The notes beneath the pieces were generated by a model, which saw nothing but the letters and a program-made list of their open reading frames with translations, did no database searches and was not told the origin of the DNA. A stretch of DNA of 64,000 nt, taken from NCBI GenBank assembly GCA_026709505.1, contig JAPOSW010000128.1:20261-84260 (forward strand), read 5' to 3'. The stretch's first letter is position 1; every line of letters begins with the position of its first letter. The position numbers were made by a program, and so were the translations under genes. Positions 14,331 to 54,765 of the stretch are shown piece by piece. The DNA comes from Gammaproteobacteria bacterium. Its GTDB lineage: Bacteria; Pseudomonadota; Gammaproteobacteria; Arenicellales; Poriferihabitantaceae.

Positions 14331-17300
14331 ATGCCTAAAAAACCCCTGAAACATGGTCATGACAAGTGGGAATTCTGGGTCGATCGGGGCGGCACCTTCA
14401 CCGACATCGTTGCACTGCAGCCAGACGGTCAAATGCTCACTCACAAGCTTCTCTCTGAAAGCCCGGGATATCGCGATGCGGCGATCCAGGGCATTCGTGA
14501 TATCCTGAAAATCCCATCCGGGGACAACTTGCCTATTGAGAAAATTGCTGCCGTAAAAATGGGAACGACAGTGGCGACCAATGCACTGCTGGAAAGAACC
14601 GGGGAACCGACACTGCTGGTGACCACTCGCGGTTTCAGAGACCAGCTCAGGATTGGCTACCAAACCCGACCCGACCTGTTTGCACTCGATATCCAGCTGC
14701 CCGAAATGCTGTACTGTGATGTTCTGGAAGTCGATGAACGTCTCGATGCACACGGGAAGGTCATCAAATCCCTGGATGATGAAGCAGCCCGTCTGGGACT
14801 TGAACGATACTATGACGAGGGCATTCGCTCGGTGGCGATCGTGCTACTGCATGGCTATCGATATACGATGCATGAGGACTCCCTCAAGACTATCGCCGAA
14901 GCGATTGGGTATTCGCAGGTCTCGGTCAGTAACCAGGTCAGCCCGCTAATGAAATATGTGCCGCGTGGCGATACAACCGTTGTCGATGCATACCTTTCAC
15001 CGGTTATTCGCAAATATGTGGCGGAGGTAGCCGCTCAGTTAGGCGCGACTGACACTCCAGCTGGTCAACTCAAGTTGATGCGTTCGAACGGAGGTCTTGC
15101 GGATGCCCGCTTTTTTTACGGCAAGGACGCGATCCTGTCAGGCCCGGCCGGAGGCGTGGTCGGCATGGCCCGGGTCAGTGAAGCGGCCGGGTTCAGTGAG
15201 GTGATTGGATTCGATATGGGAGGAACCTCAACCGATGTCAGCCACTACAACGGCGAGTTTGAAAAATCCCATGAAACCGAGGTTGCAGGCGTCAGGCTAA
15301 GAGCCCCGATGATGATGATTCATACCGTTGCAGCCGGGGGCGGGTCCATTCTGCATTTTGACGGTGCCCGCTACCGGGTGGGTCCGGATTCAGCAGGCGC
15401 CAGCCCCGGTCCGGTCTGCTACCGAAACAATGGACCGTTGACCATCACGGACTGCAATGTCATGACTGGCAAACTACAGCCAGACATGTTTCCATGCGTG
15501 TTCGGCGAGACGGGCGACCAGCCAGTTGATGCAAGCCAGGTACGCATCAAGTTTGCTGAACTTGCCGAAACGATCCAGCAGCAAACCGGCGATGCCCGAT
15601 TGCCCGAAGAAGTGGCTTCAGGATTTCTCGCAGTCGCTGTTGGCAACATGAGCAATGCCATCAAGAAAATTTCAGTCCAGCGAGGCTATGATGTCACCCG
15701 CTACACGCTCTGCTGCTTTGGCGGAGCTGGCGGCCAGCATGCCTGCATGGTTGCCGATGCACTGGGCATGAACAAAATTCTGGTGCATGAGTTTTCAGGC
15801 ATCCTGTCTGCCTATGGCATGGGACTGGCTGACACGGTCGTGGACCGCCAGCAAGCGGTTGAGCAAATACTGGCAGGGCAGCTTGTGCAGGAACTCGAAA
15901 GCATAGCCAATGGCCTCAAGGCCGAGTGCGATAAACTGCTTGCCAGGCAAATTCCCCAAACCCACATGCAAAAGACACACTACAGAAATCTGCTGCATGT
16001 GCGTTATGAGGGATCCGACACCTCCTTTCCCGTTCTGCTCGCGCCGGTTGAACGGATACAGAGCCAGTTCGAGGAGGTTCACCGGATGCGTTTCGGATTT
16101 ACCTCCCCGGACAAGAAGCTGATTGTCGAATCCATTCAGGTAGAGGCGGTTCACAAGGCACGCTCAGCTGTAGCCGGCCCAAGCAAGGCGCAATCGCCTG
16201 TACAGTCGCACATGGCAGAGCCCGTTGCCGAAAGATCCTGCTACATGGATGGCGAGTGGCGTCAAACCCCGTTTTTTGAGCGTGAATCCCTGTTTCCCGG
16301 ATGTCAGGTCAAGGGGCCATCAGTAATTCTTGATGCAACCGGGACACTGGCTGTCGAGCCCGGATGGCAGGCCATTCTTGATGAGGGCGCAAATCTCCTG
16401 ATTGAGCGTTACGTCCCGCGCAAGGAATCAGTGGCAATTGGAACTGACGTAGATCCGGTTATGCTTGAAGTATTCAATAACCTGTTCATGTCAATCGCCG
16501 AGCAGATGGGTTCGGTGCTTGAGAACACCGCGGTTTCGGTCAATATCAAGGAGCGACTGGACTTTTCCTGCGCAATCTTTGATCCGGAGGGTGCGCTGGT
16601 AGCAAATGCCCCTCACATGCCGGTCCACCTGGGATCAATGTCAGAGAGCATCAAAACCGTGATTCGCGAGCGGTCCGGCCGGATGCGGCCAGGTGAAGCC
16701 TACATCTTGAATGCGCCATACAACGGGGGCACGCATTTGCCTGATGTTACGATTATTCGCCCGGTATTTTCCGAACAGGCAGAATTGCTCTTCTTTACCG
16801 CATCGCGTGGACATCATGCAGACATCGGGGGTAAATCCCCGGGCTCTGCGCCGGCAGACTCCACCCGCATCGAAGAGGAGGGGGTGGTCATCGACAATGA
16901 AAAACTGGTCGAGAATGGGCAATTTGCGGAGCAGTCAATCCGCAATCTTCTGACTGACAGCCCCTGGCCTGCCCGAAACCCGGATATGAACATTGCGGAT
17001 TTCAAGGCACAGCTTGCGGCCTGCGAAAAGGGAGCGCATGAGTTGCTGGGCATGATCGACTGGTACGGAAAAGAGACCGTCCATGCCTACATGAAACATG
17101 TTCAGGATAATGCAGAAGAATCGGTACGCCGAGTGCTGGATGTACTGAATGACGGACAATTTACCTATCGCATGGATGACGGACATCGGATTTCCGTCAG
17201 GATTTCCGTCGATCACAAGGCCCGCAGGGCAGTGATTGACTTCACGGGAACAAGCGGTCAGCATCCGGGAAATTTCAATGCTCCTACGGCGGTGGTCCGT

Positions 17301-17981
17301 GCGGCAGTGCTGTATGTTTTTCGCTGTCTGGTCAATGATCAGATTCCGCTCAATGAAGGCTGCCTAAAACCTCTTGAGATTATTATTCCGGAAGATTCAA
17401 TGATCAGTCCCAGGCATCCCGCTGCGGTGATTGCAGGCAATGTGGAGACTTCCCAGTATCTTGTCGATACCCTGTTTGGCGCACTGGGTACAGTTGCCGC
17501 AGCCCAGGGAACCATGAATAACTTCATCTGGGGCAACGATCAAGTGCAGTATTATGAAACAGTCTGCGGGGGCTCAGGTGCAGGCGCAAATCATCATGGT
17601 ACGCACGCCGTGCACACTCACATGACTAATTCCCGTCTTACCGATCCGGAAGTCCTTGAATGGCGATTTCCGGTACGCGTAGAATCGTTTGAAATTCGCA
17701 AGGGTTCGGGTGGACGAGGGCGTTTTACTGGCGGTGATGGCGTGATACGTAAAATCCGTTTCGGTGAGGCTGTAACCGCGAATATCATCTCGGGACATCG
17801 CAAAATAGCCCCCTATGGGCTTGAAGGCGGGGAGCCTGCACAAGTCGGCGTCAATCGTGTTGAACATGCCGATTCCCGGATAACCGAGTTGGCAGGCAGT
17901 GGCTCGATTGATCTGGAATCGGGCGATGTCTTTGTGATCGAAACCCCCGGAGGTGGAGGATTTGGAACACCATCGTCGTAA
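14331..17981 (+). CDS. Fused hydantoinase A/B (HyuA-HyuB) ATP-dependent amidohydrolase, 5-oxoprolinase / N-methylhydantoinase family
   Basis: About 1,217 aa. N-terminus [16 protein letters not shown], then DMGGTSTDV. The HyuB half carries [12 protein letters not shown] and the C-terminus [12 protein letters not shown] 14331 has GAGGA 9 nt upstream. Confidence 0.9.
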
Positions 17982-18237
17982 TGGTTTCTTAGGGAATGGC
18001 CCCCGGTTTTTGATGCTCGTTAGTGAATGGGCATCCCGAAAACCTTGTTACACCAGCATACAGCGCTCATCTTTAATCCGGGGCAGGGACTATGTCATTG
18101 ATGGAATTATTCCGAGAGCGCATGGCTTGACGTGGATCCAGAATGGATTGATCAGCAGAACATTTGCAGCAAAACTACATGCATTCATGAACCAGAGAAA
18201 TCTTCATTGATTTCGGTCTGATTACAGAAAAAAGCTT

Positions 18238-19104
18238 ATGAAGCAAACTTTCAGGAAAACCGGCATGTCTTTTCCAGGCATCAAAAGAAAAACACGATGG
18301 GTCACTGTCGCCTTGTTGATATCCTTTATGCTGGCAAATTCCTTGTCCGCAGACCGGGATTCCCGGATCGTAAGAATTGCAACCACAACCAGTACTGAAA
18401 ATTCCGGCCTTATGCGATATCTTCTTCCCGAAGTTGAAAAGGATACCGGATTCCAGTACCAGACCATAGCAGCAGGAACCGGCAAGGCACTACAGGTTGG
18501 CAGGGCGGGGGATGTCGATGTGGTCATGGTTCATGCGAAGAGTTCAGAACTGGAATTCGTAGAACAGGGCTATGGTGTTGACCGAACGGAGTTCATGTAC
18601 AACGATTTCGTGATTGTAGGACCTTCAGAAGCCAGGGGCGTCATTGATTTCAGCGGAATGTCCTCTGTTGTCCAGGTCTTTCAGAATATCCGGGATAATC
18701 AGGTTTTGTTTGTTTCCCGTGGCGATGACTCCGGTACTCACAAGAAGGAATTGCAAATCTGGGAGATGGCAGGCACTCTTCCTGACGGAAGTTGGTATCG
18801 GGAAGTGGGTCAGGGTATGGGTAAGACCCTGCAGATCGCTGGGGAGCTTGGAGCTTATACCCTTACCGATAGGGGCACTTGGCTATTCGCGAAAGAGCGC
18901 TCGCCGCTTGAGATCATGTTTGAAGGGGATCCGGAACTGTTCAATCAGTACAGCGTCATGGCGGTCAATCCGAATCGCCACGACATCAACTATCCGGGTG
19001 CGAAAGCATTGATTACGTGGCTATCGGGAGATAAAGGTCAACGCATGATAAATGAATTCCGGATTGGCGGAGAACAGTTATTCAATGCCAATGCCGGGAA
19101 CTAG
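18238..19104 (+). CDS. Periplasmic oxyanion-binding protein, TupA-like (tungstate ABC substrate-binding)
   Basis: Signal peptide, then IATTTSTENSGL and GTGKAL..G..GDVDVVMVHA, which I recognise from TupA-type binding proteins. No permease or ATPase gene follows. Confidence 0.65.
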   Translation: MKQTFRKTGMSFPGIKRKTRWVTVALLISFMLANSLSADRDSRIVRIATTTSTENSGLMRYLLPEVEKDTGFQYQTIAAGTGKALQVGRAGDVDVVMVHAKSSELEFVEQGYGVDRTEFMYNDFVIVGPSEARGVIDFSGMSSVVQVFQNIRDNQVLFVSRGDDSGTHKKELQIWEMAGTLPDGSWYREVGQGMGKTLQIAGELGAYTLTDRGTWLFAKERSPLEIMFEGDPELFNQYSVMAVNPNRHDINYPGAKALITWLSGDKGQRMINEFRIGGEQLFNANAGN

Positions 19105-19873
19105 TGCAGAATAGGGCAGGAAAATTAACAGCGGAGAAAATCCATGAAGCAACACTTTAGATTCGCTCCCTGTACCAGGTTTAAGGCAAGTGCTCTGCAA
19201 TAGTCCCTGATCCAGCAGAAACAGGAAAAGGATTGCTGCAGGTCCTGTGGAGCTGTGGACACAGGACATCAACGCACCGGGACTATTCAGTCAGCCCGCT
19301 TGCGGAAGTGGACATGGGCCACAACATTGGCGGCAGTCATCTAGTCCTGAACGCAAGTGCGATAAATACTGCTGGCTCGCAGACACTTTTTACAAACAAC
19401 CTTTCTGCAGCTAAATGCTCGTTTTACGCGGACGGACTGGAGATGGTTCCTCAATCACTTCGTTTCCCATGAGGACAGGGACTACAGCAACAAAATCATC
19501 CCAGGGGGATTTAGGGACAGTAGATTCAGGAAACCCAGCAGGTAGGGGAACCAACAGAATGAATTTGACTGCGACAACACCCCATGTTGCCATCTAGTAT
19601 GCAGAAGTAGCCGGGACTGGAACTAATAATCCTGTTAATACGCTCTGCTTCATGACGGGCGGAACCTACACGCCATCGAATACAACCTTCTTCAATCCGG
19701 ATCCGAGTTCAACCGGAAGCTTCACGATCAGCTTCCTAACCCCTCTTGATATTCGCAGTTGCCTATGTGAACGGAGCGATCTATCTCAAAGCGGCGGCGC
19801 CAACAATCGGCCTTCGCATACGCACCAAGATGCGAGGACGGCATTGGGATGTAACATGAATTGACAACAGCCT

Positions 19874-20155
19874 TTAATGCAGACAGGGCGGCTGCAGTAG
19901 CTCAGTTCGAACTGTCCGATTTCTTTTTGTAGGTTTTGGTGCGGTCTGTGCATCTTCAGCCGTTTTCTCAATATCTTCTACATCCCAAAGCCGGTCAGTC
20001 ACTCCTGCTTCCACTGCCGGGGGCGCTTGCAGTGTTTGGCGGATCCTACAGAAATTACAGTGCATGATATGCAGTGTCACTGCATGGGCATGGTTTTCCA
20101 TTTTCCTTGAAAGGGCATTGGTCAGCCGCCTGAACCGGCGCATGGACATAAGCAT
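19874..20155 (-). mobile_element. C-terminal fragment of an IS1-like transposase
   Basis: RRLTNALSRKMENHAHAVTLHIMHCNFCRIRQTL..PPAVEAGVTDRLWDVEDI matches the conserved C-terminus of this transposase type. Only 93 aa, with no catalytic N-terminal part. Confidence 0.55.
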
Positions 20156-20157
20156 TG

Positions 20158-20706
20158 TCAGATTTTGACGTTTGACACAAGATGTAGAAATGTTATCGGG
20201 GTTAGGATATCAATCAGCGTTTCAATCTCTCCGGCCTTGACGGTCTTGCTGGTGTTTCTTGCCCATTGCATGCCGATTTCGGTGTCGTTGCCATAGACGA
20301 CCTTGGGGATATCCCGGATTTTTTCAAGAGCGTTATGCAAGTCAAGAATCCCGATGGCTTTCGGAAACAATTCTGAATAACACGACCATATCCACCTGGT
20401 TCCATCTCTGATTGCCACCTGATGGCTGGCATTGTAGAACCCCCGCCGCATGGCTTCGCGCTTCATGCGCCGGGCAAAGCACGCCAGCTGGGTTCCCGGC
20501 ACCTGCACTTTCGATGGCCGCGGTGTGGGTGACCGAAGCAGCATCGATATTCGAGCCTCTACTTTCTCGTCAAGACGACCGCATGTCCAGGCCGTTGCCA
20601 CCCTCATTTTCCGGGTTTTCGAGGTGCCGTCGGGCTGCTTGCCCTTCACCCCTTCGGTCTCGGACCTGACCATCGGCACCCCAGTGCCGTCAATACCCAA
20701 ATACAT
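20158..20706 (-). mobile_element. Internal fragment of an ISKra4-like DDE transposase
   Basis: YLGIDGTGVPMVRSETEGVKGKQPDGTSKTRKMRV is the first-Asp region typical of ISKra4-type transposases. 182 aa, truncated at both ends. Abuts the IS1-like fragment. Confidence 0.55.
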
Positions 20707-20813
20707 GGTATTTGCCGGAGACGATTCCTGTTGGACCTAGCGGAACTCGTACTGTCTGATGTCCTCTCCCAGACGCTCGGAAGTCCGTTTCACCCGCATG
20801 GCGCCGACCCGCC

Positions 20814-22649
20814 CTAGTCCGGCGTTTCCGGCTGCAGCCTTGGATTCTGGTGCTCGAATGACTCCTCGTCAATATCGTCCAGCTCCAGAGTCTGCTCAAG
20901 CTGTTCCCGGGAATGCAAAGCGACCGAAATCAGTTCTTTTTCCTGATCACGGTTATCGACCTGTCGCATGAGTTTCTGAATGTCCCGTTCCACGTAAGCA
21001 TCAGCCATGTTGTCGATGTGTTCTTTCGAGAACCCGAGATGTTTCAGGATTCGCTTGCCCATCTCGACCGAGGAATAAAACGTGTCCCGGGTGACCTCCT
21101 TGACATTCATGCTGTGCAAGTCAATGGCATGGTCCCGGTCTTTGGCTCTCGCGATGATTCGCAGACCCGGGTATGCATCCTGAATCAGTTCGACAGCCTG
21201 ATTGGTCACTGCAGCATTGTTCATGGTCAGAATGATCATATCGGCCTGATCGGCGTTCACGGCCTTTAGCACATCATGCTTGAACAGGTCTCCATAGTAG
21301 GTTTTGTATCCAAATCGTCGAACTCGCTCAATGTGGTCAGGATCGTTTTCGATCACGACCGGCTCAATGCCATTGACATGCAGCATGCGACCGATAATCT
21401 GGCCGACTCGCCCGAAACCGACCAGGATCACTCGGCTCTCATGATCAATCTCGTCCATTTCCAGATTCAATTCCGTGTTCTTGCGATAACGGGGCTCGAT
21501 CAGCCTATCGTTCAATACCACAAGCAGTGGCGTCATCATCATTGTGAGAGTCACAATCAGAATCAGCTTGGAAGACAAGTCGGGTTCCAGTGCACCTGAA
21601 GCCGCCGCAAATGCAAACAGTACAAAGGCGAATTCTCCGCCTTGCGAAAACAGGAATGAAAACAAGGGGCGTTCGCTGACATCCAGCTTTGTCAAGATCG
21701 CAAGTCCGTAAAGGACAGCTGCCTTGATGATCAATATCCCGAATGCGGCAGTTGCGATCGATAGCGGATTATCGAACAGCAGACCGAAATTCATGTTCAT
21801 TCCGACCGATATGAAAAACAACCCGAGCAGCAGTCCCTTGAATGGTTGAATATCGGACTTGAGTGCATGCCGGTACTCGGAGTCGGCCAGAATGACGCCG
21901 GCCAGAAATGCCCCCAATGCCAGTGAAAGCCCCAGTTCATGCATGATTGTGGAGAGACCCAGTATCAGAAGGAGCGACAATGCGGTGAATATTTCGGGCA
22001 AACGTGTCGAGGCTACGAACCTGAAGATATGGGACAAGGCGTAGCGGCTGACCAGAAATATGCCGATTGAAGCCGCAATCAGGGTCAGGCCGAGCATGGT
22101 GGGGTCGGTAACTTCCTGCGATTCAGCCTGACTGTCCGACAGGAAGGGAATTAATGCCAGGACCGGGACCACCAGCAAATCCTGAAACAGCAGGACGGGA
22201 AACCCGGTTTGTCCGATTGGGCGCTTGAGAAGATTTCTTTCATTGATAATCTGCAGTGACATCGCTGTCGATGACAATGCCAGGGCTAGGCCGATGATCA
22301 CGGCAGCTTGCCAGCGGAGCCCCAGCAGCATGACGACTCCGCCTATCAACAGGGTGCTGAGCCCCATCTGAAAACCGCCAAAGTAGGCGATAGGCTTTCT
22401 CATCGCCAGCAGTCTTCGAGGTTCGAGTTCTAGGCCGATGATGAACAGCAGCAGCATGATGCCAAGCTCGGAAAGTTCGAGGACGTCTTGGACATTGTCG
22501 ATGAATCCGAAGCCCCAGGGACCAATCAACATGCCGGCAAAAAGATAGCCGAGCACGGATCCGAGACCGAGTCGGGCGAATATAGAAACCAGAACAACGG
22601 CCGAACCGAGGTAGATGAGGACATTGAGTATGAGGCCGCCAGTATCCAT
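20814..22649 (-). CDS. Glutathione-regulated K+-efflux type monovalent cation:proton antiporter (CPA2, KefB/KefC-like) with KTN/TrkA-N domain
   Basis: 611 aa. Multi-TM N-terminal domain followed by the Rossmann motif RVILVGFGRVGQ. Confidence 0.85.
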   Translation of the reverse strand: MDTGGLILNVLIYLGSAVVLVSIFARLGLGSVLGYLFAGMLIGPWGFGFIDNVQDVLELSELGIMLLLFIIGLELEPRRLLAMRKPIAYFGGFQMGLSTLLIGGVVMLLGLRWQAAVIIGLALALSSTAMSLQIINERNLLKRPIGQTGFPVLLFQDLLVVPVLALIPFLSDSQAESQEVTDPTMLGLTLIAASIGIFLVSRYALSHIFRFVASTRLPEIFTALSLLLILGLSTIMHELGLSLALGAFLAGVILADSEYRHALKSDIQPFKGLLLGLFFISVGMNMNFGLLFDNPLSIATAAFGILIIKAAVLYGLAILTKLDVSERPLFSFLFSQGGEFAFVLFAFAAASGALEPDLSSKLILIVTLTMMMTPLLVVLNDRLIEPRYRKNTELNLEMDEIDHESRVILVGFGRVGQIIGRMLHVNGIEPVVIENDPDHIERVRRFGYKTYYGDLFKHDVLKAVNADQADMIILTMNNAAVTNQAVELIQDAYPGLRIIARAKDRDHAIDLHSMNVKEVTRDTFYSSVEMGKRILKHLGFSKEHIDNMADAYVERDIQKLMRQVDNRDQEKELISVALHSREQLEQTLELDDIDEESFEHQNPRLQPETPD

Positions 22650-40309: not shown

Positions 40310-40555
40310 GTCGGTATTCTGTATTAAATTACACCCGTCAAAAATGCAGCGGCGGCAACCTCGGCTATATTATCTGTAATCACTACCTTGTTCAACTGCT
40401 GCGCTGTTCAGGGGATTTGTTTTGGCAATGACGCCATGACCTGTTGAGCTGGGCTTTGGACTCATCCATGCATTGTATTGAAAGAAGCAGGAATGGGTCT
40501 TCGATTTTCCAAATCCGAAAATGTAGTTTCTATCCGGAAAGTCATTGAGGCAAGC

Positions 40556-40901
40556 GGGAGTCGGTCGATAAGCCGGGTTCTGTCTTGGGCAGCCATTCAT
40601 CTGGAATACCTGTCACCAGATATTTCAAGCAACCTACCCGGATCCGATGCGGGCCACATCTTCAGGATCCCTATTTGGTCTTGCTCCAGGTGGGGTTTAC
40701 CCTGCCACTTCTGTTGCCAAAAGCGCGGTGCGCCCTTACCGCACCATTTCACCCTTACCTCCGAGAAATCCGAAGGCGGTATATTTTCTGTTGCACTAGC
40801 CGTCGATTCACATCGCCCAGGCGTTACCTGGCACCCTGCCCTGTGGAGCCCGGACTTTCCTCAATACCCTATTGGATACTGCGACTGCCTGGCCGACTCC
40901 C
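40556..40901 (-). ncRNA. rnpB: RNase P RNA, bacterial type A
   Basis: The minus strand reads GGGAGUCGGCCAGGCAGUCGC...GAGGAAAGUCCGGGCUCCACAGGGCAGGGUGCCAGGUAACGCCUGGG...GGUAAGGGUGAAAUGGUGCGGUAAGGGCGCACCGC...AGAUGAAUGGCUGCCCAAGACAGAACCCGGCUUAUCGACCGACUCCC. P1 pairs the two ends. All universal blocks match E. coli M1 RNA. Confidence 0.92.
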
Positions 40902-46596: not shown

Positions 46597-46755
46597 ACAT
46601 GTTTAGAGCTTAGGCGGATTATCGCTATACTTCACGCATGACGCAATTCATTCTGAGCAAGTCGTAATAAAACACGAAAAGTTTTCGACATATTTCTATT
46701 ATCCGTTATTTGGACTCAGTTCAGAACCTTGTATTTTCATTCCTTTTCATTCGAC

Positions 46756-48285
46756 ATGCAGAAATCCACAAGAAAACGCAGCGGTCGCCGGAGTCGTCCC
46801 CAAACGCATAATCCCGAGCCCGCTGGCATTGCCTATCTCAATCGTCAGATCCCCGATACGCAGTTGTTGAATGCCGAGGGTCTTGAGCTGATTGAGCATA
46901 ATGCCGACACGATTCTTGAGGAAATCGGCATTGATTTCAGGTATGAGCCGGCAAAAAAACTGTTCAGGGCGGCTGGTGCAGAAATTGATGGTGACCGAAT
47001 CCGTTTTCCGCGAGGGATGTGTCGGGGCATTATTCAGGAGAGTGCACCCCGTGAATTCGAGCAGAAAGCCCGTAATCCAAAACGCAATGTAACGATTGGC
47101 GGCAATTCCACGGTGTTTGCACCGGTATATGGACCGCCATTTGTCAGGGACCTTGATCAAGGCCGGCGCTATGCGACGATTGAGGATTTCCGCAATTTCG
47201 TAAAACTGGCTTACCTGCTGCCCTCGCTCCACCATTCGGGGGGTACGGTTTGCGAGCCCACAGACGTGCCGGTCAACAAGAGGCATTTCGACATGGTTTA
47301 CAGCCATATTAAATACAGCGACAAGCCCTTCATGGGTTCAGTCACCCACCCTGAACGGGCCGAAGACTCGGTCGAGATGTGCAAAATCCTGTTTGGCGCG
47401 GACTATGTTGATCAGAATACGGTATTGGTGAATCTCATCAATGCCAATTCTCCGATGACTTTTGATGAGACCATGCTGGGCGCATCGGAAGTCTACGCAA
47501 GAAACAATCAGGCCAGTATTGTCTCGCCGTTTATCCTGTCGGGTGCCATGTCGCCGGTCACCGTGGCTGGAACCATGGCGCAAATTCTGGCCGAGGCACT
47601 GGCGGGAATCGCATTTACCCAGCTTGTTCGACCGGGATCGCCGGTTATCTTCGGGACCTTTTCAAGCTCGATTTCCATGCAATCCGGGGCACCCACATTC
47701 GGTACGCCTGAACCGGCACTGGTGATTTACGGCTGCGCTGAACTTGCGCGGCGTCTCGGGGTGCCTTTTCGAAGTGGCGGGTCGTTGTGCGGTTCAAAGA
47801 TCACGGATGCACAGGCTGCCTATGAAAGTTCAAGCACCTTGTTGCCGACAATGCTGGCGGGAGTCAATTTTGTCCTGCATGCTGCCGGCTGGTTAGAGGG
47901 CGGTCTTGTTTCAGGTTATGAAAAGTTGATCATGGATGCCGATCAGCTGGGCATGATGGGGGTATTTGCAGGCGGCTATGACCTCACGGAAAACGGCCAG
48001 GCATTGCGAGCGATTCGAGAAGTGGGGCCGGGATCGCATTATCTGGGCTGTGAACATACTCAGGATAATTTCAAGACTGCGTTCTATCGATCTTCAATTG
48101 CCGATAACAACAGTTTTGAGCAGTGGGAGCTTGAAGGCAGTCTGGATGCGACAGCCAGGGCGAATGCGATCTGGAAACGGATGCTGAACGAATACGAGGC
48201 GCCGCCAATAGATCCGGCGATTGATGAGGCATTGCTGGAATTTATCGAAACTCGAAAGAGTTCGTTTCTGGATGCCAATTATTGA
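46756..48285 (+). CDS. MttB-superfamily methyltransferase without pyrrolysine (quaternary-amine:corrinoid methyltransferase candidate)
   Basis: 510 aa uninterrupted ORF. Arg-rich N-terminus, then family-typical blocks (L..E.L..I...A..ILEEIG, NANSPM.FD, GA.SP.T.AG...Q..AE.LAG, LHAAGWLEGGL..S.EK...D). Confidence 0.85.
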   Translation: MQKSTRKRSGRRSRPQTHNPEPAGIAYLNRQIPDTQLLNAEGLELIEHNADTILEEIGIDFRYEPAKKLFRAAGAEIDGDRIRFPRGMCRGIIQESAPREFEQKARNPKRNVTIGGNSTVFAPVYGPPFVRDLDQGRRYATIEDFRNFVKLAYLLPSLHHSGGTVCEPTDVPVNKRHFDMVYSHIKYSDKPFMGSVTHPERAEDSVEMCKILFGADYVDQNTVLVNLINANSPMTFDETMLGASEVYARNNQASIVSPFILSGAMSPVTVAGTMAQILAEALAGIAFTQLVRPGSPVIFGTFSSSISMQSGAPTFGTPEPALVIYGCAELARRLGVPFRSGGSLCGSKITDAQAAYESSSTLLPTMLAGVNFVLHAAGWLEGGLVSGYEKLIMDADQLGMMGVFAGGYDLTENGQALRAIREVGPGSHYLGCEHTQDNFKTAFYRSSIADNNSFEQWELEGSLDATARANAIWKRMLNEYEAPPIDPAIDEALLEFIETRKSSFLDANY

Positions 48286-48484
48286 TCCCCGACATCCGAA
48301 ACAAGGCGTGCATCAATTCAGTCAAGCCTGAGAATATGGGCTTCACAGCTTTCCCATAATCATTTGTCTTGCCGCAACAGCCGAAGAAAAACCAATCGTG
48401 CAGTCACTGGTCTGGCAGCACGGGGAATAAGGGGCGGGAGATCCATATCCGGCAATTATCAGAGAAATTGGCAGACCTTGGATT

Positions 48485-50506
48485 TCAGGGGCGCTTTCTC
48501 CGTCTTCTCCGCCCATCACTTCCTGATTGACCGGTTATCGGCGCATCATCGGCTTGCGGCAATTTGACCTGTTGGGCGAGTTTCTCGAATCTATCTGATT
48601 GATGGGGTATGCCCAGTGCTTCTACAAAATACTCCTGGAATTTATCCTCGACTGCAGTCTCAATTTTCTGAATCTGTTTTACAGTGTGCTCGATTTCCTC
48701 CCTTGCATCGGTATCCAGTAGAGCAATGCTGGCTCCCTTTCCGGCTGCATTGCCTGCCGAAGTGACCTGAGATAATTCGCAGTCGGGAATCATTCCCAGG
48801 ACCATGGCATATTTCACGTCAATATGGGCGCCAAAGGCTCCGGCCAACCGGATGCGATCGACCTGATCTACACCCATCTTGTCCATCAGCAATCTGGCCC
48901 CGGCATACAGAGCCGCCTTGGCTAGCTGTATGGCCCGGACATCGTTTTGCGTGATCAGGATTCTCACCGTATCCCTCTCGAAGAGCACATAGCTCCAGGT
49001 TTTGCCGTCTTGAACAATCCGATCTGACCGCTTTGCCAGTTCACCGTTGATCATTCCGTTCTTCAGGATAATTCCACATAAAAACATCTCGGCGATAACT
49101 TCGATAATGCCTGAGCCGCAAATTCCGGTAATGCCGGTATTGCCGAACTTGTCGAAGAACCCTGCATGATCGGACCAGAGATCACATCCGATCACCTGAA
49201 ACCTTGGTGCAAGCGTCTCGGCATTAATGCGCACCCGTTCGATGGCACCGGGTGCTGCGCGCTGCCCACTGCTGATCTGTGCTCCTTCAAATGCCGGACC
49301 GGTCGGGCTTGATGCAGCCAGCATCCGTGAGCGGTTGCCCAGTACGATCTCGGCATTGGTCCCGACATCCACCAACAGGGTTAATTCGTCCTGCTGGTAA
49401 GGGGCTTCCGACAGGGTTGCTGCCGCAGCATCGGCTCCCACATGTCCTGCGATGCACGGCAATACGTAGGTGCGGGCACCCGGGTGCAGCTGGATGTCAA
49501 TGTCGGATGCCTTGATACTGACCGACCGATCAGTCGCAAGAGCAAATGGGGCACCGCCCAGTTCGATAGGATTAATGCCCAATAGCAGATGATGCATAAT
49601 GGGATTGCCTACGATTGTCATGTCAAGAATATCCCCAGTCTCGATTTTGGCGATTTCGCACAAGTCGGCAATTTGCCCTTGCACGGCCTCGCGAACTGCG
49701 CAGGTCATGTCGACCTCGCCACCGGGATTCATCATCACATAGGAGACACGGCTCATCAGATCCTCGCCAAATCGAATCTGAGGGTTCATGCGGCCAGTTG
49801 AAGCGATCGCCTCACCGCTTATCAGATCGTACAGGTGCGCGGCAATGGTTGTTGATCCAATATCTATCGAAACTCCGTATACGGTACTTTTAAAGCCCGG
49901 CCACAAAGCAATCACCTCCTGTGCTTGATGCACTGCAGCCGTGATCTTCCACTCTCCTTCTCGGAGCAAATGCTGCAGAACACCCAGTAACCCAAAATCA
50001 AACTTGAGATCGCTGAGTCCCCATTCGAATTCGAGCGCATCCAGAATACGCTCGATATCCCCGGAGGGATGGTGCATATCGGGTTCCTGAACCTCGACAT
50101 AATGCAGGCGAACTGCCGGATTGACGGTCATCTCGTGAACATCAAGACGCTTTCTGACAATCTGTCGATGCGCCTGGCTTTCCGGCGGGATATCGATTAC
50201 GGCATCACCCTGAAGCAGGGCCTGACAGCCGAGACGTCGAGTGGGCGAGATATCATCCAGAAAATATGCCTCCTCGCTTGACGTGTGCCCGGAGAGGTTT
50301 TCCGGCCTGGAGTGAATCTGAAACTTCGGGAACTCCCCAACGCTCAAATCGATCTGGCATCGATCACAAATTCCCCGACCGCCGCACACCGTGTCGAGGT
50401 CGACTCCAAGCTGCTGAGCGGCGGCGAGTACAGATTTGCCGCTTTGTATCTCTCCCCGCTTGCCTGATGGCGTGAAGACAACCTTCACGAACTCACGGTC
50501 TGTCAT
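48485..50506 (-). CDS. Reductive activator of corrinoid enzymes (RamA/RACo-like): plant-type 2Fe-2S ferredoxin domain + ASKHA ATPase domain
   Basis: N-terminal CGGRGICDRCQ...C cluster. ASKHA phosphate motifs SIDIGSTTIAAHL and LVDVGTNAEIVLG. 673 aa. Confidence 0.8.
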   Translation of the reverse strand: MTDREFVKVVFTPSGKRGEIQSGKSVLAAAQQLGVDLDTVCGGRGICDRCQIDLSVGEFPKFQIHSRPENLSGHTSSEEAYFLDDISPTRRLGCQALLQGDAVIDIPPESQAHRQIVRKRLDVHEMTVNPAVRLHYVEVQEPDMHHPSGDIERILDALEFEWGLSDLKFDFGLLGVLQHLLREGEWKITAAVHQAQEVIALWPGFKSTVYGVSIDIGSTTIAAHLYDLISGEAIASTGRMNPQIRFGEDLMSRVSYVMMNPGGEVDMTCAVREAVQGQIADLCEIAKIETGDILDMTIVGNPIMHHLLLGINPIELGGAPFALATDRSVSIKASDIDIQLHPGARTYVLPCIAGHVGADAAAATLSEAPYQQDELTLLVDVGTNAEIVLGNRSRMLAASSPTGPAFEGAQISSGQRAAPGAIERVRINAETLAPRFQVIGCDLWSDHAGFFDKFGNTGITGICGSGIIEVIAEMFLCGIILKNGMINGELAKRSDRIVQDGKTWSYVLFERDTVRILITQNDVRAIQLAKAALYAGARLLMDKMGVDQVDRIRLAGAFGAHIDVKYAMVLGMIPDCELSQVTSAGNAAGKGASIALLDTDAREEIEHTVKQIQKIETAVEDKFQEYFVEALGIPHQSDRFEKLAQQVKLPQADDAPITGQSGSDGRRRRRKRP

Positions 50507-50880
50507 GCTTCAGCGTCGAGACTCGGTAGTTCATGATAGTCGCTCATGTCTTCAACGAATATGTTCTGGATAGATTTGACATGAGTGGGGGGATCCAGAG
50601 TTCCTGCCATGATGCTTATCCTGTCACTCCGGTTAAGCTTCCAGAACAGGCTTGACCCGCATTGACTGCAAAAACCCCGTTGTGCGATTTCGGAGGAACG
50701 ATACCAGACGAGGGTTTTATCCTTCATGATTTCCAGTTGGTCCAGCGCACATTGTACCGCTGCCACATGATGCCCTGAGGTTTTTCGACATTGACTGCAG
50801 AAGCAGTTGATGACGCCGCGGATATCCCCGGCTATCCGATAGCTGATTTCACCGCATAGGCAGCTTCCTTTTCGAATCAT
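50503..50880 (-). CDS. GFA-family (glutathione-dependent formaldehyde-activating enzyme / CENP-V fold) zinc protein
   Basis: GSCLCGEISY...CFCSQCRK.SG...FCSQCGSSLFW Cys pattern. Stop overlaps the activator start (ATGA). Confidence 0.8.
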   Translation of the reverse strand: MIRKGSCLCGEISYRIAGDIRGVINCFCSQCRKTSGHHVAAVQCALDQLEIMKDKTLVWYRSSEIAQRGFCSQCGSSLFWKLNRSDRISIMAGTLDPPTHVKSIQNIFVEDMSDYHELPSLDAEA

Positions 50881-50901
50881 TGGACCGTCGGCCGAACCAC
50901 T

Positions 50902-51822
50902 TTACCCTACTGCTGCCCGGCGTCGTCGCCGCCCTGAACGTCCGGCCCGGGCTTCGGCGAACATGTCATGGACTACTGCCGGCTGACGGTATTTCCTGAG
51001 CCACCTTGCACAGTTTTGATCATGGCCCATAACCACGTTGGCTGCCATCACGCCCTGCATGACTTCTTCGTGAAGAGGGTTGGTAATCGCAGAGGTCATG
51101 CCTGCTCCGATGGCCATGCTGATGAAATGTCCATCCATGCCCTTGCGATTGGGAATGCCAAAGCTGAAATTGGATGCACCGCAGGTGGTGTTGACCTTGA
51201 GTTCCTCCCGCAAGCGTTTCACCAGATGCAAGACCTGGCGGCCTGCGCTGTTGACTGCCCCGACCGGCATCACCAGTGGATCGACCACGATATCGCTGTG
51301 ATGGATTCCATAATCGGCTGCCCGTTCGACGATTTTCCTGGCGACATCAAAGCGCTCGTCAGGGTTTTCGGAGATTCCTGCCTCATCGTTGGAGATGGCG
51401 ACCACGGCACAGCTGTACTTTGCGACCAGCGGCAGCACCGCCTCCAGACGTTCTTCCTCACCGGTGATTGAATTCAGCAAGGGTTTGCCCTGATAGACCT
51501 CAAGCCCTGCTTCAAGAGCTCCGACGATGGATGAGTCAATCGACAGCGGAACATCGGTTACTGACTGCACGAGCTGAATGCATTCGGCAAGGATTTTCGG
51601 TTCGTCGGCAAGCGGGATACCGGCATTGACGTCCAGCATGCCTGCACCAGCCTGCACCTGGGCTATTGCATCCTGTTCGACACGTGAATAGTCACCTTGT
51701 TTCATCTCCTCGGCAAGAATTTTCCTCCCGGTCGGATTAATGCGCTCGCCAATAATCATGAATGGCTGTTCAAAGCCAATGCGAACTTCGCGACTGGCTG
51801 AACTGATAACGGTATCGGTCAT
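50902..51822 (-). CDS. Pterin-binding methyltransferase (methyltetrahydrofolate:corrinoid methyltransferase, MetH pterin-domain/MeTr-like)
   Basis: IIGERINPTGRK, LDVNAG and a TIM-barrel length of 306 aa. Arg-rich C-terminal tail. Confidence 0.8.
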   Translation of the reverse strand: MTDTVISSASREVRIGFEQPFMIIGERINPTGRKILAEEMKQGDYSRVEQDAIAQVQAGAGMLDVNAGIPLADEPKILAECIQLVQSVTDVPLSIDSSIVGALEAGLEVYQGKPLLNSITGEEERLEAVLPLVAKYSCAVVAISNDEAGISENPDERFDVARKIVERAADYGIHHSDIVVDPLVMPVGAVNSAGRQVLHLVKRLREELKVNTTCGASNFSFGIPNRKGMDGHFISMAIGAGMTSAITNPLHEEVMQGVMAANVVMGHDQNCARWLRKYRQPAVVHDMFAEARAGRSGRRRRRAAVG

Positions 51823-51890
51823 AACAAGGCTCCGGATTTGTCGGTGTAGATCAGTAAAATTTAATTATCGGGTCATGCTGCCCAATCCTC

Positions 51891-52205
51891 TTACTGGCTT
51901 TTTTTCAATGGTTCTTCATGCCCACATCGTTGGACCAGGCCTTTCAGGCGGTCCGTATGGTATTCCTGTTCAATGCGGGATGCGGCCGCTTCAACTTCTG
52001 ACTTCAAGTCATCACTACAGGGGACTGATACGCGGCGCCACTCTTGAAGATAGGCATCTGTCCCTGAAAGACCTGCACGCATCGCTGCAGCATCGATGGC
52101 GATGGCGAATCTATTGCTCAATTCGAGTTTTTCTGCCTGTCGACGCTGTTTCGCCATGACCTGAGCGGGAATGTCTCTCCAGAATACGGTTACAAGATCG
52201 GTCAT
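51891..52205 (-). CDS. Small conserved protein that accompanies corrinoid methyltransferase clusters ('virulence factor'-annotated family, by recollection)
   Basis: 104 aa. N-terminal VTVFWRDIPAQVMAK...AIDAAAMRAGLSGTDAYLQEWRR matches what I recall for this family. Function unknown. Confidence 0.5.
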   Translation of the reverse strand: MTDLVTVFWRDIPAQVMAKQRRQAEKLELSNRFAIAIDAAAMRAGLSGTDAYLQEWRRVSVPCSDDLKSEVEAAASRIEQEYHTDRLKGLVQRCGHEEPLKKSQ

Positions 52206-52217
52206 GGTCGTCGGTCC

Positions 52218-52865
52218 TTATGCTTGCGAATCGGCTACACGGCCAAAATCGTTGACGACAACCTTGAGTGAGTCGTTCAGCCCGGTGTCGCCCGTGAATT
52301 CCTGTTCGAACGCAAGCCCGAGAAACTCGGCTGCCTGGCGGGCCTTGTGTTCGGTTTTCGAATTTTGTTTCTGGGCGAGATAGATCAGTTTGCTGTAGTG
52401 TCCGAAGTACTGGTCCTTGAGCTCGGGATATCGATCGATTCCGAGTCCACTGACAATCAACCGATCGAAATTGCTGGCTAGATAATCAGTCAGGTAAAAG
52501 GTGCCGATTTCATATTCATGCAGGGCATTGAATTTTTCGGCCCCTGCGAATAGTTCATAGCAATGGGCACCGGGCAGTCGCTCGATGCCCTCTTGCTCAA
52601 TCACCTTGTCGAGCAGTCCTCCGGTTCCACAATCTGCATATCCGATGAAGATTTTGGAGAAATGATCCCGGTTCTCGCGGATTTTCTTCCGAACAGCCTC
52701 GGGGATTTTCTCCGGATAATTGTGCAACGCTGCTGGCAGGCACTGGAATTCGATATGGTTCCAGTTATTCAAGTCGCGCACTCGCACGAGTTCATGAGCA
52801 AGGGCGCCACAGGCAATCACCAGCAGCTTCCCGTTTGCACAATCTGAATGCTGTTCAGGCTGCAC
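52218..52865 (-). CDS. DUF1638-family protein
   Basis: LLVIACGALAHEL...GYADCGTGG...CYE resembles DUF1638. Start uncertain: GTG 52865 gives an 11-nt overlap with the corrinoid gene, while ATGs at 52913, 52928 and 52958 overlap more. Confidence 0.6.
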   Translation of the reverse strand: MQPEQHSDCANGKLLVIACGALAHELVRVRDLNNWNHIEFQCLPAALHNYPEKIPEAVRKKIRENRDHFSKIFIGYADCGTGGLLDKVIEQEGIERLPGAHCYELFAGAEKFNALHEYEIGTFYLTDYLASNFDRLIVSGLGIDRYPELKDQYFGHYSKLIYLAQKQNSKTEHKARQAAEFLGLAFEQEFTGDTGLNDSLKVVVNDFGRVADSQA

Positions 52866-53550
52866 GCTTCTCAGCGATTTTTGCTTGTGCCGTCTCAACG
52901 GCAACCGCAGCATCCCGACAATAGGCATCGGCACCGATAGCCTTGCCAAACTCTTCATTCAGGGGGGCCCCGCCGACCAGCACGATATAGTCTTCGCGAA
53001 TCCCCTGTTCGACCAGGGTATCGATCACGACTTTCATGTAGGGCATGGTGGTGGTCAACAGTGCAGACATGCCCAGTATATCGGGCCGGTGCTGTTCAAG
53101 AGCCTCAAGATAGTTCTCGACCGGATTGTCAATGCCGAGATCAATGACTTCGAAGCCTGCGCCTTCCATCATCATGGACACCAGATTCTTGCCGATGTCA
53201 TGGATATCCCCTTTGACGGTGCCGATCACCATCTTGCCAATCGGTTCTGCGCCGGTTTCAGCCAGCAAGGGACGGAGGATTTTCATGCCGCCTTTCATGG
53301 CATTGGCAGACATCAGGACTTCGGGAACGAACAGTATGCCGTCCCGGAAATCGATACCGACAATGCGCATGCCTTCAACAAGCGCCTCATCAAGCACCCT
53401 GGTTGCGGCCCAGCCGCGATCGAGCAGTATCTGTGTGCCTTCGATAATCTCGTCACGCAGACCATCATAGAGATCATCATGCATCTGCTCTACCAGTTCT
53501 TCATCTGACAGGGCAGACAGGTCAATATCATCGTATTCTTCTTCGCTCAT
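52855..53550 (-). CDS. Corrinoid (cobalamin-binding) protein, MtgC/MetH B12-domain-like
   Basis: B12 cap helix region, then the Rossmann B12 domain with DxHxxG (VKGDIHDIGKNLV) and SALLTTT. Strongly acidic N-terminus. Confidence 0.85.
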   Translation of the reverse strand: MSEEEYDDIDLSALSDEELVEQMHDDLYDGLRDEIIEGTQILLDRGWAATRVLDEALVEGMRIVGIDFRDGILFVPEVLMSANAMKGGMKILRPLLAETGAEPIGKMVIGTVKGDIHDIGKNLVSMMMEGAGFEVIDLGIDNPVENYLEALEQHRPDILGMSALLTTTMPYMKVVIDTLVEQGIREDYIVLVGGAPLNEEFGKAIGADAYCRDAAVAVETAQAKIAEKRAA

Positions 53551-54226
53551 CGTGGCTACCCATACGAAAAAATAACCGAAAACCAAGACCACTGCGGAGG
53601 TATTCGCAAGCCCGAGGCATTTTTTGGAATATACAAATCCGCTATCATTTCGATATGTCCATTTGCGACAATAAAAACGGATTTTACGACTCTATATTGA
53701 AGATTCCTTGAATTTTCCGAACTATTTTGAAAAGATTATCATTAATTTGAAAATACGAAACCGGCGTGGACCTGTTTTCGGCAATTTCATCGAAGGTCAT
53801 GCTGCAGCGCACACGGGATTCAAGTTATCCAATGACTGCTTCGAGAGGGTCACGGAATCATACAGGGTATCGAGGGTGCTTTCGGGTTTTCCATTTACGG
53901 ATTGGGGCATACCGCCAATATTGCAAGGTAAAAAGCCAAACAGACCGGAGGCGATACCATGCAGCTAACACCAGCGGAAATAACCCTGTTGATCAACCAG
54001 CACAAAATTCTGAAAATTCTTGATCCTGAGAGGCATCGCCATGCCAGACCCCGACAATGAGGCCTGAAGTCGCCGGAGAATGTTTTCCCTCCCGGACGCT
54101 GGGAAGCATCAGGCAGTGCTTCGCCAGCGGTGGCGTGTTTCTGAGTCATGCCGCAGAACAATATGAAAAAATGGGTGATGGGCTGTTGATGCTTGACCCT
54201 GTCGTGAACAATAGGCCGGGGATTTA

Positions 54227-54526
54227 TGGTGCGGGCGGAGGGAGTCGAACCCTCACTGCCATCTGGCAAACGGATTTTCGTACCAGCTACGATTTGCACC
54301 GCCCTCATGATTCGAGGTTTGTGGTCTGGACTATCCCTTCACCCTAGCTGTTTGCCTTAGGTGCTGCCCGTCTAGTCTCTACACCTTCCCGTTCGAAATC
54401 GGGCTTGGCTCGGGATTGCCATATTCCAGGTTTTTCCGAGTTTGAGCAGTTCTACATTTCCGGTTTCCCGAAAAGCACTCAAATTATAATTAAGTCCGTT
54501 GCGTCTACCGATTCCGCCACGCCCGC
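54227..54526 (-). tRNA. tRNA-Leu(UAA) gene interrupted by a group I intron. Exons 54526-54492 and 54278-54227; CCA encoded.
   Basis: The joined exons give GCGGGCG-UG-GCGGAAUCGGUAGACGC-A-ACGGA-CUUAAAA-UCCGU-UUGCCAGAUGGCAGU-GAGGG-UUCGACU-CCCUC-CGCCCGC-ACCA. This has a 7-bp acceptor stem, a 5-bp anticodon stem, a long variable arm and a canonical T loop. Confidence 0.9.
54279..54491 (-). ncRNA. Group I intron (IC3-like), 213 nt, no ORF, inserted between U34 and A35 of the anticodon
   Basis: Core strings CUCAAACUCGGAAAAACCU, GGCAAUCCCGAGCCAAGCC, GAAGGUGUAGAGACUAGACGGGCAGCACCUAAGGCAAAC and GGGAUAGUCCAGAC. Terminal G (54279) immediately before the 3' exon. 5' exon ends in U. Confidence 0.85.
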
Positions 54527-54545
54527 AAGATTTTGATGAAAGTGT

Positions 54546-54573
54546 AGTTTATGATAAGAGAGATTCATGTCAA
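54546..54573 (-). promoter_or_regulatory. Candidate sigma70 promoter of the tRNA-Leu gene
   Basis: Minus strand: TTGACA - 16 nt - TAAACT, ending 19 nt upstream of tRNA position +1. Confidence 0.4.
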
Positions 54574-54765
54574 TAGCTTGTACCGGCAGAAACTCTGAAG
54601 CAGGGCAATGCGCAATGCAGGAAGTAAATGAACGGATAAGTTGAACCTGCGCTTCCATGGTGTAAGCGGACATTCCATATGCAAAACGGTATCAGCCTGT
54701 TGCGGATGCTCAAACGTCAAATCCACTCGGAGCTATCAGATGATCCGAATCCAGGCGTGAAATCT

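Follow-up and report, generated by a model that had tools for sequence, protein, structure and literature searches.

The 64,000-nucleotide (nt) stretch analyzed here (hereafter the window; contig JAPOSW010000128.1 of the Gammaproteobacteria bacterium assembly GCA_026709505.1) contains a tRNA-Leu(UAA) gene that is interrupted by a group I intron of 213 nt. Our favored explanation is that the locus is a gammaproteobacterial tRNA-Leu(UAA) gene with an intact intron of subgroup IC3, belonging to the class named Leu.3Ug (Williams, 2020), which would splice to a functional tRNA and appears to be inherited vertically; judging from the sequence, we give this reading a probability of about 0.93, and the intron itself is probably functional. 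A split gene with an intron of this size, lacking an open reading frame (ORF), had been proposed here in an earlier reading of the letters alone (the original prediction), and the coordinates, ARAGORN with intron detection (-i), Rfam and covariation all agree with it.

Layout and detection of the split gene

Coordinates are those of the window, and the pre-tRNA is numbered 1–300 on the minus strand (window coordinate = 54527 – n). When read on this strand, the exon and intron coordinates of the original prediction proved exact to the base. Exon 1 (54526–54492, minus strand, 35 nt, GCGGGCGUGGCGGAAUCGGUAGACGCAACGGACUU) and exon 2 (54278–54227, minus strand, 52 nt) were both identified by reading the sequence and by ARAGORN. 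The first comprises the 5′ strand of the acceptor stem, the D arm, the 5′ strand of the anticodon stem and residues C32, U33 and U34, and its last four nucleotides (ACUU) are at the same time the 5′ strand of intron helix P1. The second contains A35, A36, A37 and A38, the 3′ strand of the anticodon stem, a long variable arm, the T arm, the 3′ strand of the acceptor stem, the discriminator A and an encoded CCA. The intron between them (54491–54279, minus strand) is of the subgroup IC3 type, starts with AAUUAUAAUUUGAGU, terminates in GGUACG and has no ORF; both core strings quoted in the original prediction are found within it. It is inserted between U34 and A35, in the setting CUU/intron/AAAA. 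The original prediction had identified this as the cyanobacterial and plastid site, which matches the Leu.3Ug setting of Williams (2020).

With default settings, ARAGORN detected no tRNA anywhere in the 64-kb window, and intron mode is therefore required: with -i the program reports tRNA-Leu(taa), i(36,213), that is, a 213-nt intron at position 36. Spliced in silico, the exons give an 87-mer that ARAGORN recognizes as a class II tRNA-Leu(UAA): the cloverleaf forms, the variable arm is long, the discriminator is A73 and the anticodon loop reads CUUAAAA; at the predicted ligated-exon junction ...GGACUU is joined directly to AAAAUCCG.... Rfam matches the intron with RF00028 (Intron_gpI) at 54501–54311 on the minus strand; the 52.2 bits compare with a gathering score of 50 (E = 2.2e-10), and the match covers model positions 1–253. 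Both the Intron_gpI search and the intron-aware tRNA search, which the original prediction had suggested as checks, are thus positive.

Upstream of the gene, a consensus scan identified a sigma-70-like site (54546–54573, minus strand) composed of TTGACA, a 16-nt spacer and TAAACT, with 10 of 12 positions matching. It ends approximately 20 nt before the 5′ end of the tRNA, and the match to the consensus suggests that it may act as the promoter of the split gene. Decoding of UUA requires a tRNA-Leu with U34, and the window contains 39 UUA codons, distributed over 23 of its 38 long ORFs.

The locus is overlapped by five mechanically defined ORFs of at least 40 amino acids (aa), none of which is contained within the intron. 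The original prediction had counted three spurious ORFs that would hide the gene; gene callers do place ORFs here, and only the number needs correction. A 64-aa ORF over exon 1 and the start of the intron (54479–54673, minus strand) is a gene call in one public assembly, and a 96-aa ORF antisense to the 3′ half of the intron and to exon 2 (54057–54347, plus strand) is a gene call in five. Both are regarded as spurious and neither has a Pfam hit.

Intron architecture and its conservation

The original prediction had also proposed a P1–P9 fold as a check, and a complete group I model up to P9.0, P9 and P9a, including the P3–P7 pseudoknot and the P4–P6 domain, can be drawn with all pairs canonical in the window sequence. 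We compared this model with a MAFFT alignment of 32 relatives from named genomes and with a set of 116 non-redundant relatives. In the alignment 96.2% of the cells are paired, compared with 82.1% in column shuffles (0 of 500 shuffles equal the observed value), and 32 of the 57 pairs show changes on both sides; as a control, sliding the partners by 1–3 columns lowers pairing to 27–42%. Among the 116 relatives the proposed pairs are 79–100% canonical, with the exception of G171·U181 in P8 (54%). Several pair types occur in P2, P3, P5, P6a, P8, P9.0, P9 and P9a of this set, and P4, P6 and P7 are invariant in it. The residues invariant in the alignment, which the window copy keeps by construction, comprise the internal guide sequence (IGS), J3/4, P4, J4/5, J6/7-P7-J7/3, J8/7 and omega-G.

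In what follows helices are given in pre-tRNA numbering, followed where available by the window coordinates, all on the minus strand. P1 (32–37/45–50; 54477–54495) pairs the exon residues ACUU and the intron residues AA with the internal guide UUGAGU (54482–54477), and includes A32-U50, C33-G49, U34-A48 and U35·G47. The last of these is the wobble at the 5′ splice site (U54492·G54480), which is conserved in 116 of 116 relatives, as is U-1. P10 could arise between three U residues in L1 and the three A residues at the start of exon 2. P2 (53–59/64–70; 54457–54474) is a hairpin of 7 bp closed by a GAAA tetraloop (54467–54464), and all seven pairs are changed on both sides across relatives. P3 (78–83/158–163; 5′ strand 54444–54449, 3′ strand 54364–54369) is 100% paired, with compensatory changes in four of six pairs, and in the model it forms a pseudoknot with P7. 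The P4-P5-P6-P6a domain (54384–54440), with J3/4 (AAA) directly on its 5′ side, consists of the nearly invariant P4 (87–91/114–118) and P6 (119–120/142–143) and the covarying P5 (97–98/107–108) and P6a (124–127/136–139); P5 has only 2 bp, P5abc is absent, and J4/5 and J5/4 are A-rich.

The 5′ strand of P7 (148 and 150–154; 54373–54379), G-A(bulge)-GACUA, lies in the R element AGAGACUAGACGG and is invariant in 32/32 and 116/116 sequences, and its 3′ strand UAGUCC (194–199; 54328–54333), the S element, is invariant across relatives. The pattern G148-A149(bulge)-G150...C198-C199 is present and invariant as well, and from established knowledge of group I introns the G150-C198 pair with the preceding bulged A is the putative guanosine-binding site. 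P8 (164–167/184–187 and 171–173/179–181; 54340–54363) covaries and carries CCUAAG...UAGGG, likely a variant of the 11-nt GAAA-tetraloop receptor and a docking site for L2; this role is assigned from likeness to the P8 of the Azoarcus intron. P9.0 (ACCA/UGGU, 202–205/242–245; domain 54282–54325) encloses P9 (CCUC/GAGG, 210–213/221–224) and P9a (CGGU-GCAA-AUCG, with a GNRA loop, 226–229/234–237), and all three helices covary. The last intron nucleotide, omega-G (248; 54279), is invariant in the 32-sequence alignment.

By analogy with established group I chemistry, the split gene would be transcribed from its own promoter and the intron would fold into P1–P9 with the P3/P7 pseudoknot. An external guanosine in P7 would attack the phosphate after U34 of the tRNA, held by the IGS in the U·G wobble; omega-G would then take the place of this guanosine, exon 2 would dock through a short P10, and the exons would be ligated. 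This would restore the loop CUUAAAA and give a tRNA reading UUA and UUG. The intron, which has no homing endonuclease, would be a tolerated and structurally constrained passenger of a needed tRNA gene, residing at a fixed locus and passed on vertically within the lineage. A regulatory role, in which the solitary split gene provides the sole UUA-reading tRNA and the intron gates the supply of tRNA-Leu(UAA) according to ribozyme folding and guanosine availability, is an improbable extension of this scheme.

Host lineage and distribution of the intron family

The MsbA protein encoded in the window has NCBI counterparts, labelled 'MAG: ... [Gammaproteobacteria bacterium]', at identities of 100, 93, 86, and 75%, and the window with its extensions encodes MsbA, LpxK, KdsB, LptE, KefC, MoeA and a divergent plsY/folB-folK pair. 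From these identities and the flanking gene content, we conclude that the DNA belongs to an uncultured gammaproteobacterium, as opposed to a cyanobacterium or a plastid; the origin that the original prediction had named as fatal to it is thus not the one found. An identical FolK and DNA of 99.6–100% identity occur on six contigs, from the NCBI metagenome-assembled genomes GCA_026708905.1 and GCA_026710135.1 and from ENA, JGI and Logan. The split gene is complete and unchanged on five of these, and the sixth ends 29 nt into the gene. Because it is repeated across public contigs, the split arrangement is not an assembly artefact. Judging by their labels, the samples may come from studies of sponge microbiomes.

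The gene stands alone between a gene for a TPR protein and a corrinoid-methyltransferase cluster, and its flanks are free of genes for integrases or mobile elements. Homologues of the adjacent TPR protein with 81, 77, and 65% identity define three related species, each of which has a tRNA-Leu(UAA) gene with an intron of 212–213 nt at the same place, directly downstream of folB-folK-TPR. At the nucleotide level the split gene is 93–95% identical between the window and these species. The 28 variable sites among the four species lie mostly in loops L1, L5, L6a, L8 and L9; five helix pairs are changed and none is broken, and an additional compensatory double change (U129-A134 to C-G) lengthens P6a. 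This is the pattern that purifying selection on structure leaves in an RNA passed on vertically. In one of the sister genomes recognized by MsbA (86% identical) the tRNA lies beyond a rearrangement. Outside the lineage synteny is unhelpful, since none of the flanking proteins has a counterpart within the 8 kb compared around each of 120 other intron-split genes.

Introns of this kind have been surveyed before. The preprint of Williams (2020; bioRxiv 10.1101/2020.01.27.920355) describes a scan of 80,413 bacterial genomes in which 5,292 group I-split tRNA genes were mapped, names the classical setting CUU/a...g/AAAA Leu.3Ug and surveys it across bacterial phyla, and describes further Leu introns confined to Proteobacteria. 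With the classical case of this class, the cyanobacterial and plastid tRNA-Leu(UAA) intron (Nostoc, Anabaena), the window copy shares the insertion site, U-1, omega-G, the host gene, the IC3 architecture with a short P5 and no P5abc, a P9.0 around two hairpins, and the lack of an ORF. The compact architecture of the class is likewise found here, with a GNRA-looped P2 and a length of 213 nt that falls within the 194–282 nt seen among the matches listed. What differs is the gammaproteobacterial host and the core variant GGUGUAGAGACUAGACGG, which is the form found in proteobacteria and Acidobacteriota. The Anabaena core is presumably GGUGCAGAGACUCGACGG.

Other small tRNA introns offer further comparisons. 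One is the pre-tRNA-Ile(CAU) intron of Azoarcus sp. BH72 (Reinhold-Hurek and Shub, 1992, as well as Tanner and Cech, 1996; both as cited in PMC4033280). It interrupts another tRNA, is inserted after position 37 or so and belongs to the class Ile2.5Ug. The Azoarcus intron is alike in its IC3 subgroup, its size of approximately 200 nt and its lack of an ORF; the R/S core and J8/7 are presumably near-identical, and it presumably has an L2 GAAA tetraloop and a P8 receptor CCUAAG...UAUGG. Its P5 and P6 are presumably extended and its P9 a lone hairpin, whereas here P5 has 2 bp and the P9 domain two hairpins. A full-text literature search for the core sequence string, made to underpin the Azoarcus comparison, found nothing. 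The tRNA-Arg(CCU) intron of Agrobacterium and Bartonella (Paquin, 1999; Wachter, 2020, PMC7717549), which undergoes self-splicing in vitro and splicing in vivo, provides a functional precedent for a proteobacterial tRNA gene that is unannotated and interrupted by a small IC3 intron, although it occupies another tRNA and another insertion site (Arg.5Ug). A split tRNA-Leu(UAA) has also been reported for the gammaproteobacterial Beggiatoaceae, in which the same tRNA was missed by automatic annotation owing to its intron; the introns there were not structurally typed.

We scanned genomes, one per species, for GTAGAGACTAGACGG followed after a gap of 65–95 nt by GAAAATC, and obtained at least 120 loci, a lower bound given the exact-match pattern. 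ARAGORN identified 95 of the 120 listed matches as tRNA-Leu(UAA), with introns of 194–282 nt. Most of the remaining matches look like boundary miscalls, with 15 of the 120 called Phe(gaa); ARAGORN -i sets the intron boundary wrongly in a minority of genes that are clearly tRNA-Leu(UAA). By record title, approximately 83 of the 120 belong to Alphaproteobacteria (Paracoccaceae, Caulobacterales, Sphingomonadales, Bradyrhizobium, Rhizobium, Azospirillum and others), 17 to Acidobacteriota, 8 to Burkholderiales, 6 to Gammaproteobacteria, and one each to Planctomycetia and Pseudobdellovibrionaceae, with 4 unclassified. The gammaproteobacterial matches are Halioglobus and Microbulbifer, whose taxonomy was verified, and four from 'Ca. 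Porisulfidus', which is absent from the taxonomy dump and which we take to be gammaproteobacterial, in part from its Gly-Cys-Leu tRNA cluster.

The closest relative among the matches listed is the Halioglobus gene (exons 96%, intron 80% identical), beyond which the copies from Alphaproteobacteria, Gammaproteobacteria and Acidobacteriota lie at much the same distance. Split genes of Halioglobus, Microbulbifer, 'Ca. Porisulfidus', Alphaproteobacteria, Burkholderiales, Acidobacteriota and enterobacterial plasmids are 72–85% identical over their full length and have the same helices. In Halioglobus, Microbulbifer and Porisulfidus the split Leu gene lies downstream of tRNA-Gly(GCC) and tRNA-Cys(GCA), immediately in some of these gammaproteobacteria and at 1.2–2.4 kb in others, unlike the solitary gene of the window. 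This order is presumably that of glyW-cysT-leuZ in E. coli. In a metagenome scan, one contig (LKMJ01000840.1, 1807–2105) carries an intron-less tRNA-Leu(UAA), 94% identical to the exons in the window, in a Gly(GCC)-Cys(GCA)-Leu(UAA) cluster. As intron-less and split Leu genes share the Gly-Cys context, this amounts to a presence/absence pattern of the intron within one conserved tRNA operon.

A scan of IMG/VR viral contigs for the core GGTGYAGAGACTMGACGG also gave at least 120 loci, and 118 of the 120 listed have the T/A core variant, as in the window. ARAGORN identified 66 of the listed matches as tRNA-Leu(UAA) with the intron at the same site (185–220 nt, one of 300 nt), and 33 received no tRNA call. 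The same 18-nt core was also called by ARAGORN -i in other tRNAs, namely Met(cat) in six, Gln(ttg) in three and Asp(gtc) in two listed matches, and further in Lys, Thr, Glu, Arg(tct), 'Stop(tta)' and 'SeC(tca)', although boundary miscalls may account for a number of these. On some contigs the intron, again at this site, interrupts a UAA tRNA whose variable arm is short and whose D arm differs; these have a class I shape of approximately 73 nt after splicing, which is unusual for a bacterial-type tRNA-Leu.

Plasmids carry the family as well. In pCTX-M3 (NC_004464.2, 61823–62121) there is a complete, unannotated tRNA-Leu(UAA) gene split by an intron of approximately 212 nt, located between a hypothetical ORF and an 'AAA family ATPase'-aac(3)-IId module, with ISCfr1 and IS26 as the boundaries. 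In PLSDB, 1,269 records (Escherichia, Klebsiella, Salmonella, Acinetobacter and others) contain a full-length match, and among 5,426 complete E. coli genomes 636 carry the plasmid-type gene at ≥99% identity, with no feature under it in the E. coli RefSeq tables that were examined. The plasmid copy shows a compensatory change in P7 (A-U to G-C) and is called tRNA-Stop(tta) by ARAGORN -i. Its nearest relatives are alphaproteobacterial (85–87% identity), which hints at the source of the aac(3)-IId resistance-gene fragment. A literature search combining 'group I intron' and 'tmrB' found nothing.

Several further features of the window and its relatives were recorded. The corrinoid methyltransferase cluster (46729–53592) adjoins an AraC/DJ-1 regulator and encodes an MttB-family protein without in-frame stop, a RACo-type reductive activator, a GFA-family protein, a pterin-binding methyltransferase, DUF1638 and a B12-binding protein. 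A weak Rfam match to PYLIS_3 at 47785–47884 (39.4 bits against 38) lies inside the uninterrupted MttB-family ORF, and we rejected it as probable coding-sequence similarity and not a pyrrolysine signal. A full-length bacterial class A RNase P RNA (342.5 bits) is located at 40553–40900 on the minus strand. In the sister genome with the 86% identical MsbA, the stretch 14332–21755 downstream of msbA-lpxK-kdsB is a defence island with no equivalent in the window; it encodes an integrase, AAA_21/RloB and a KAP NTPase and includes a large gene for Type ISP restriction-modification.

Competing explanations and meaning of the finding

Several observations weigh against an intact, splicing intron. The Rfam score exceeds its threshold by only 2 bits, and the match ends before P9. 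The P8 receptor (UAGGG) and L9 (GCAA, not GAAA) deviate from the family majority. Single-sequence minimum free energy folding recovers most hairpins and misses the pseudoknot, with an unexceptional z-score of –1.14, in line with what a pseudoknotted ribozyme should give. If the genome contained another tRNA-Leu(UAA) gene, one without an intron, the argument from the UUA codons that the gene must splice would be weaker. Such a tRNA would decode UUA if the intron were an inactive relic and the split gene a pseudogene, an explanation that we consider very unlikely. In its favor one may cite the borderline Rfam score, the position of the gene outside the tRNA-Gly/Cys/Leu cluster used by other gammaproteobacteria, and the absence of any other tRNA from the default ARAGORN output for the window, to which these data are confined. 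A relic, however, would hardly have every family-invariant core residue intact, exons that yield a flawless tRNA with encoded CCA, 28 substitutions over four species without a broken helix pair, and a region conserved at 93–95% next to a protein conserved at 65–81%. That the locus is instead protein-coding, with a real 64-, 96- or 137-aa ORF and only coincidental RNA features, has a negligible chance of being correct: gene callers do annotate two of them, of 64 and 96 aa, across several public assemblies, but neither of these two has a Pfam hit, the ORFs overlap on both strands, and substitutions track RNA base-pairing and not codon structure. Moreover, the 300 nt align over their full length to tRNA-intron genes of alpha-, beta- and gammaproteobacteria, Acidobacteriota and plasmids with different flanks.

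The remaining explanations concern origin. In insertion site and architecture the intron agrees with that of cyanobacterial tRNA-Leu, as it would in a cyanobacterial or plastid contig or in a chimera of a cyanobacterial tRNA gene with proteobacterial DNA; the junctions, however, recur at 99.6–100% identity in five other independent assemblies (ENA, NCBI and JGI) and are found in three related species, the flanking genes are proteobacterial, and the core is the proteobacterial/Acidobacteriota variant, which leaves this possibility almost no weight. More serious, and still unlikely, is the gain of the whole split cassette, exons and intron, by horizontal transfer into the lineage, as opposed to an intron that is ancestral in the tRNA-Leu(UAA) of gammaproteobacteria. 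The gene is solitary, has a promoter-like site and lies outside the Gly-Cys-Leu cluster of Halioglobus, Microbulbifer and Porisulfidus, and a 94%-identical intron-less allele sits in such a cluster. Among the matches listed, exon identity to some alphaproteobacterial and acidobacterial copies (85–93%) equals that to most gammaproteobacterial ones, and whole split genes are demonstrably mobile, being present on plasmids. On the other side, the nearest relative among the matches listed, Halioglobus, is gammaproteobacterial, inheritance within the lineage is clearly vertical at a fixed locus, and integrase or mobile-element genes are lacking at the flanks. We favor the vertically inherited, probably functional split tRNA gene. 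For the family as a whole, split-tRNA cassettes may move as units between phyla and onto plasmids.

Where the original prediction saw special significance, our results point the other way. It had held such introns to be only sporadic in proteobacteria, a premise explained by a 2014 review that still names only cyanobacteria and alpha- and betaproteobacteria as hosts; at least 120 loci in our genome scan, the survey of Leu.3Ug by Williams (2020) and the Beggiatoaceae report contradict it. The particular bearing on vertical versus horizontal origin that had been claimed for this copy is likewise unsupported. Nor is it a compact new or minimal ribozyme, since the 95 listed tRNA-Leu(UAA) relatives carry introns of 194–282 nt, for which 213 nt is typical. 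The intron is neither rare, nor unusually small, nor specially informative on origins, and belongs to a known, already surveyed kind.

The practical value of the finding is the correction of annotation, and it opens no new question on intron origins. For the source genome, a missing essential tRNA is restored and at least two spurious 'hypothetical proteins' are removed. The most interesting by-product is the homologous split gene that lies unannotated beside aac(3)-IId on more than 1,000 enterobacterial plasmids. As the default ARAGORN run and the RefSeq tables examined for E. coli illustrate, standard annotation overlooks this whole class of tRNA genes, and the textbook view of tRNA group I introns as cyanobacterial, and sporadic in proteobacteria, is out of date.

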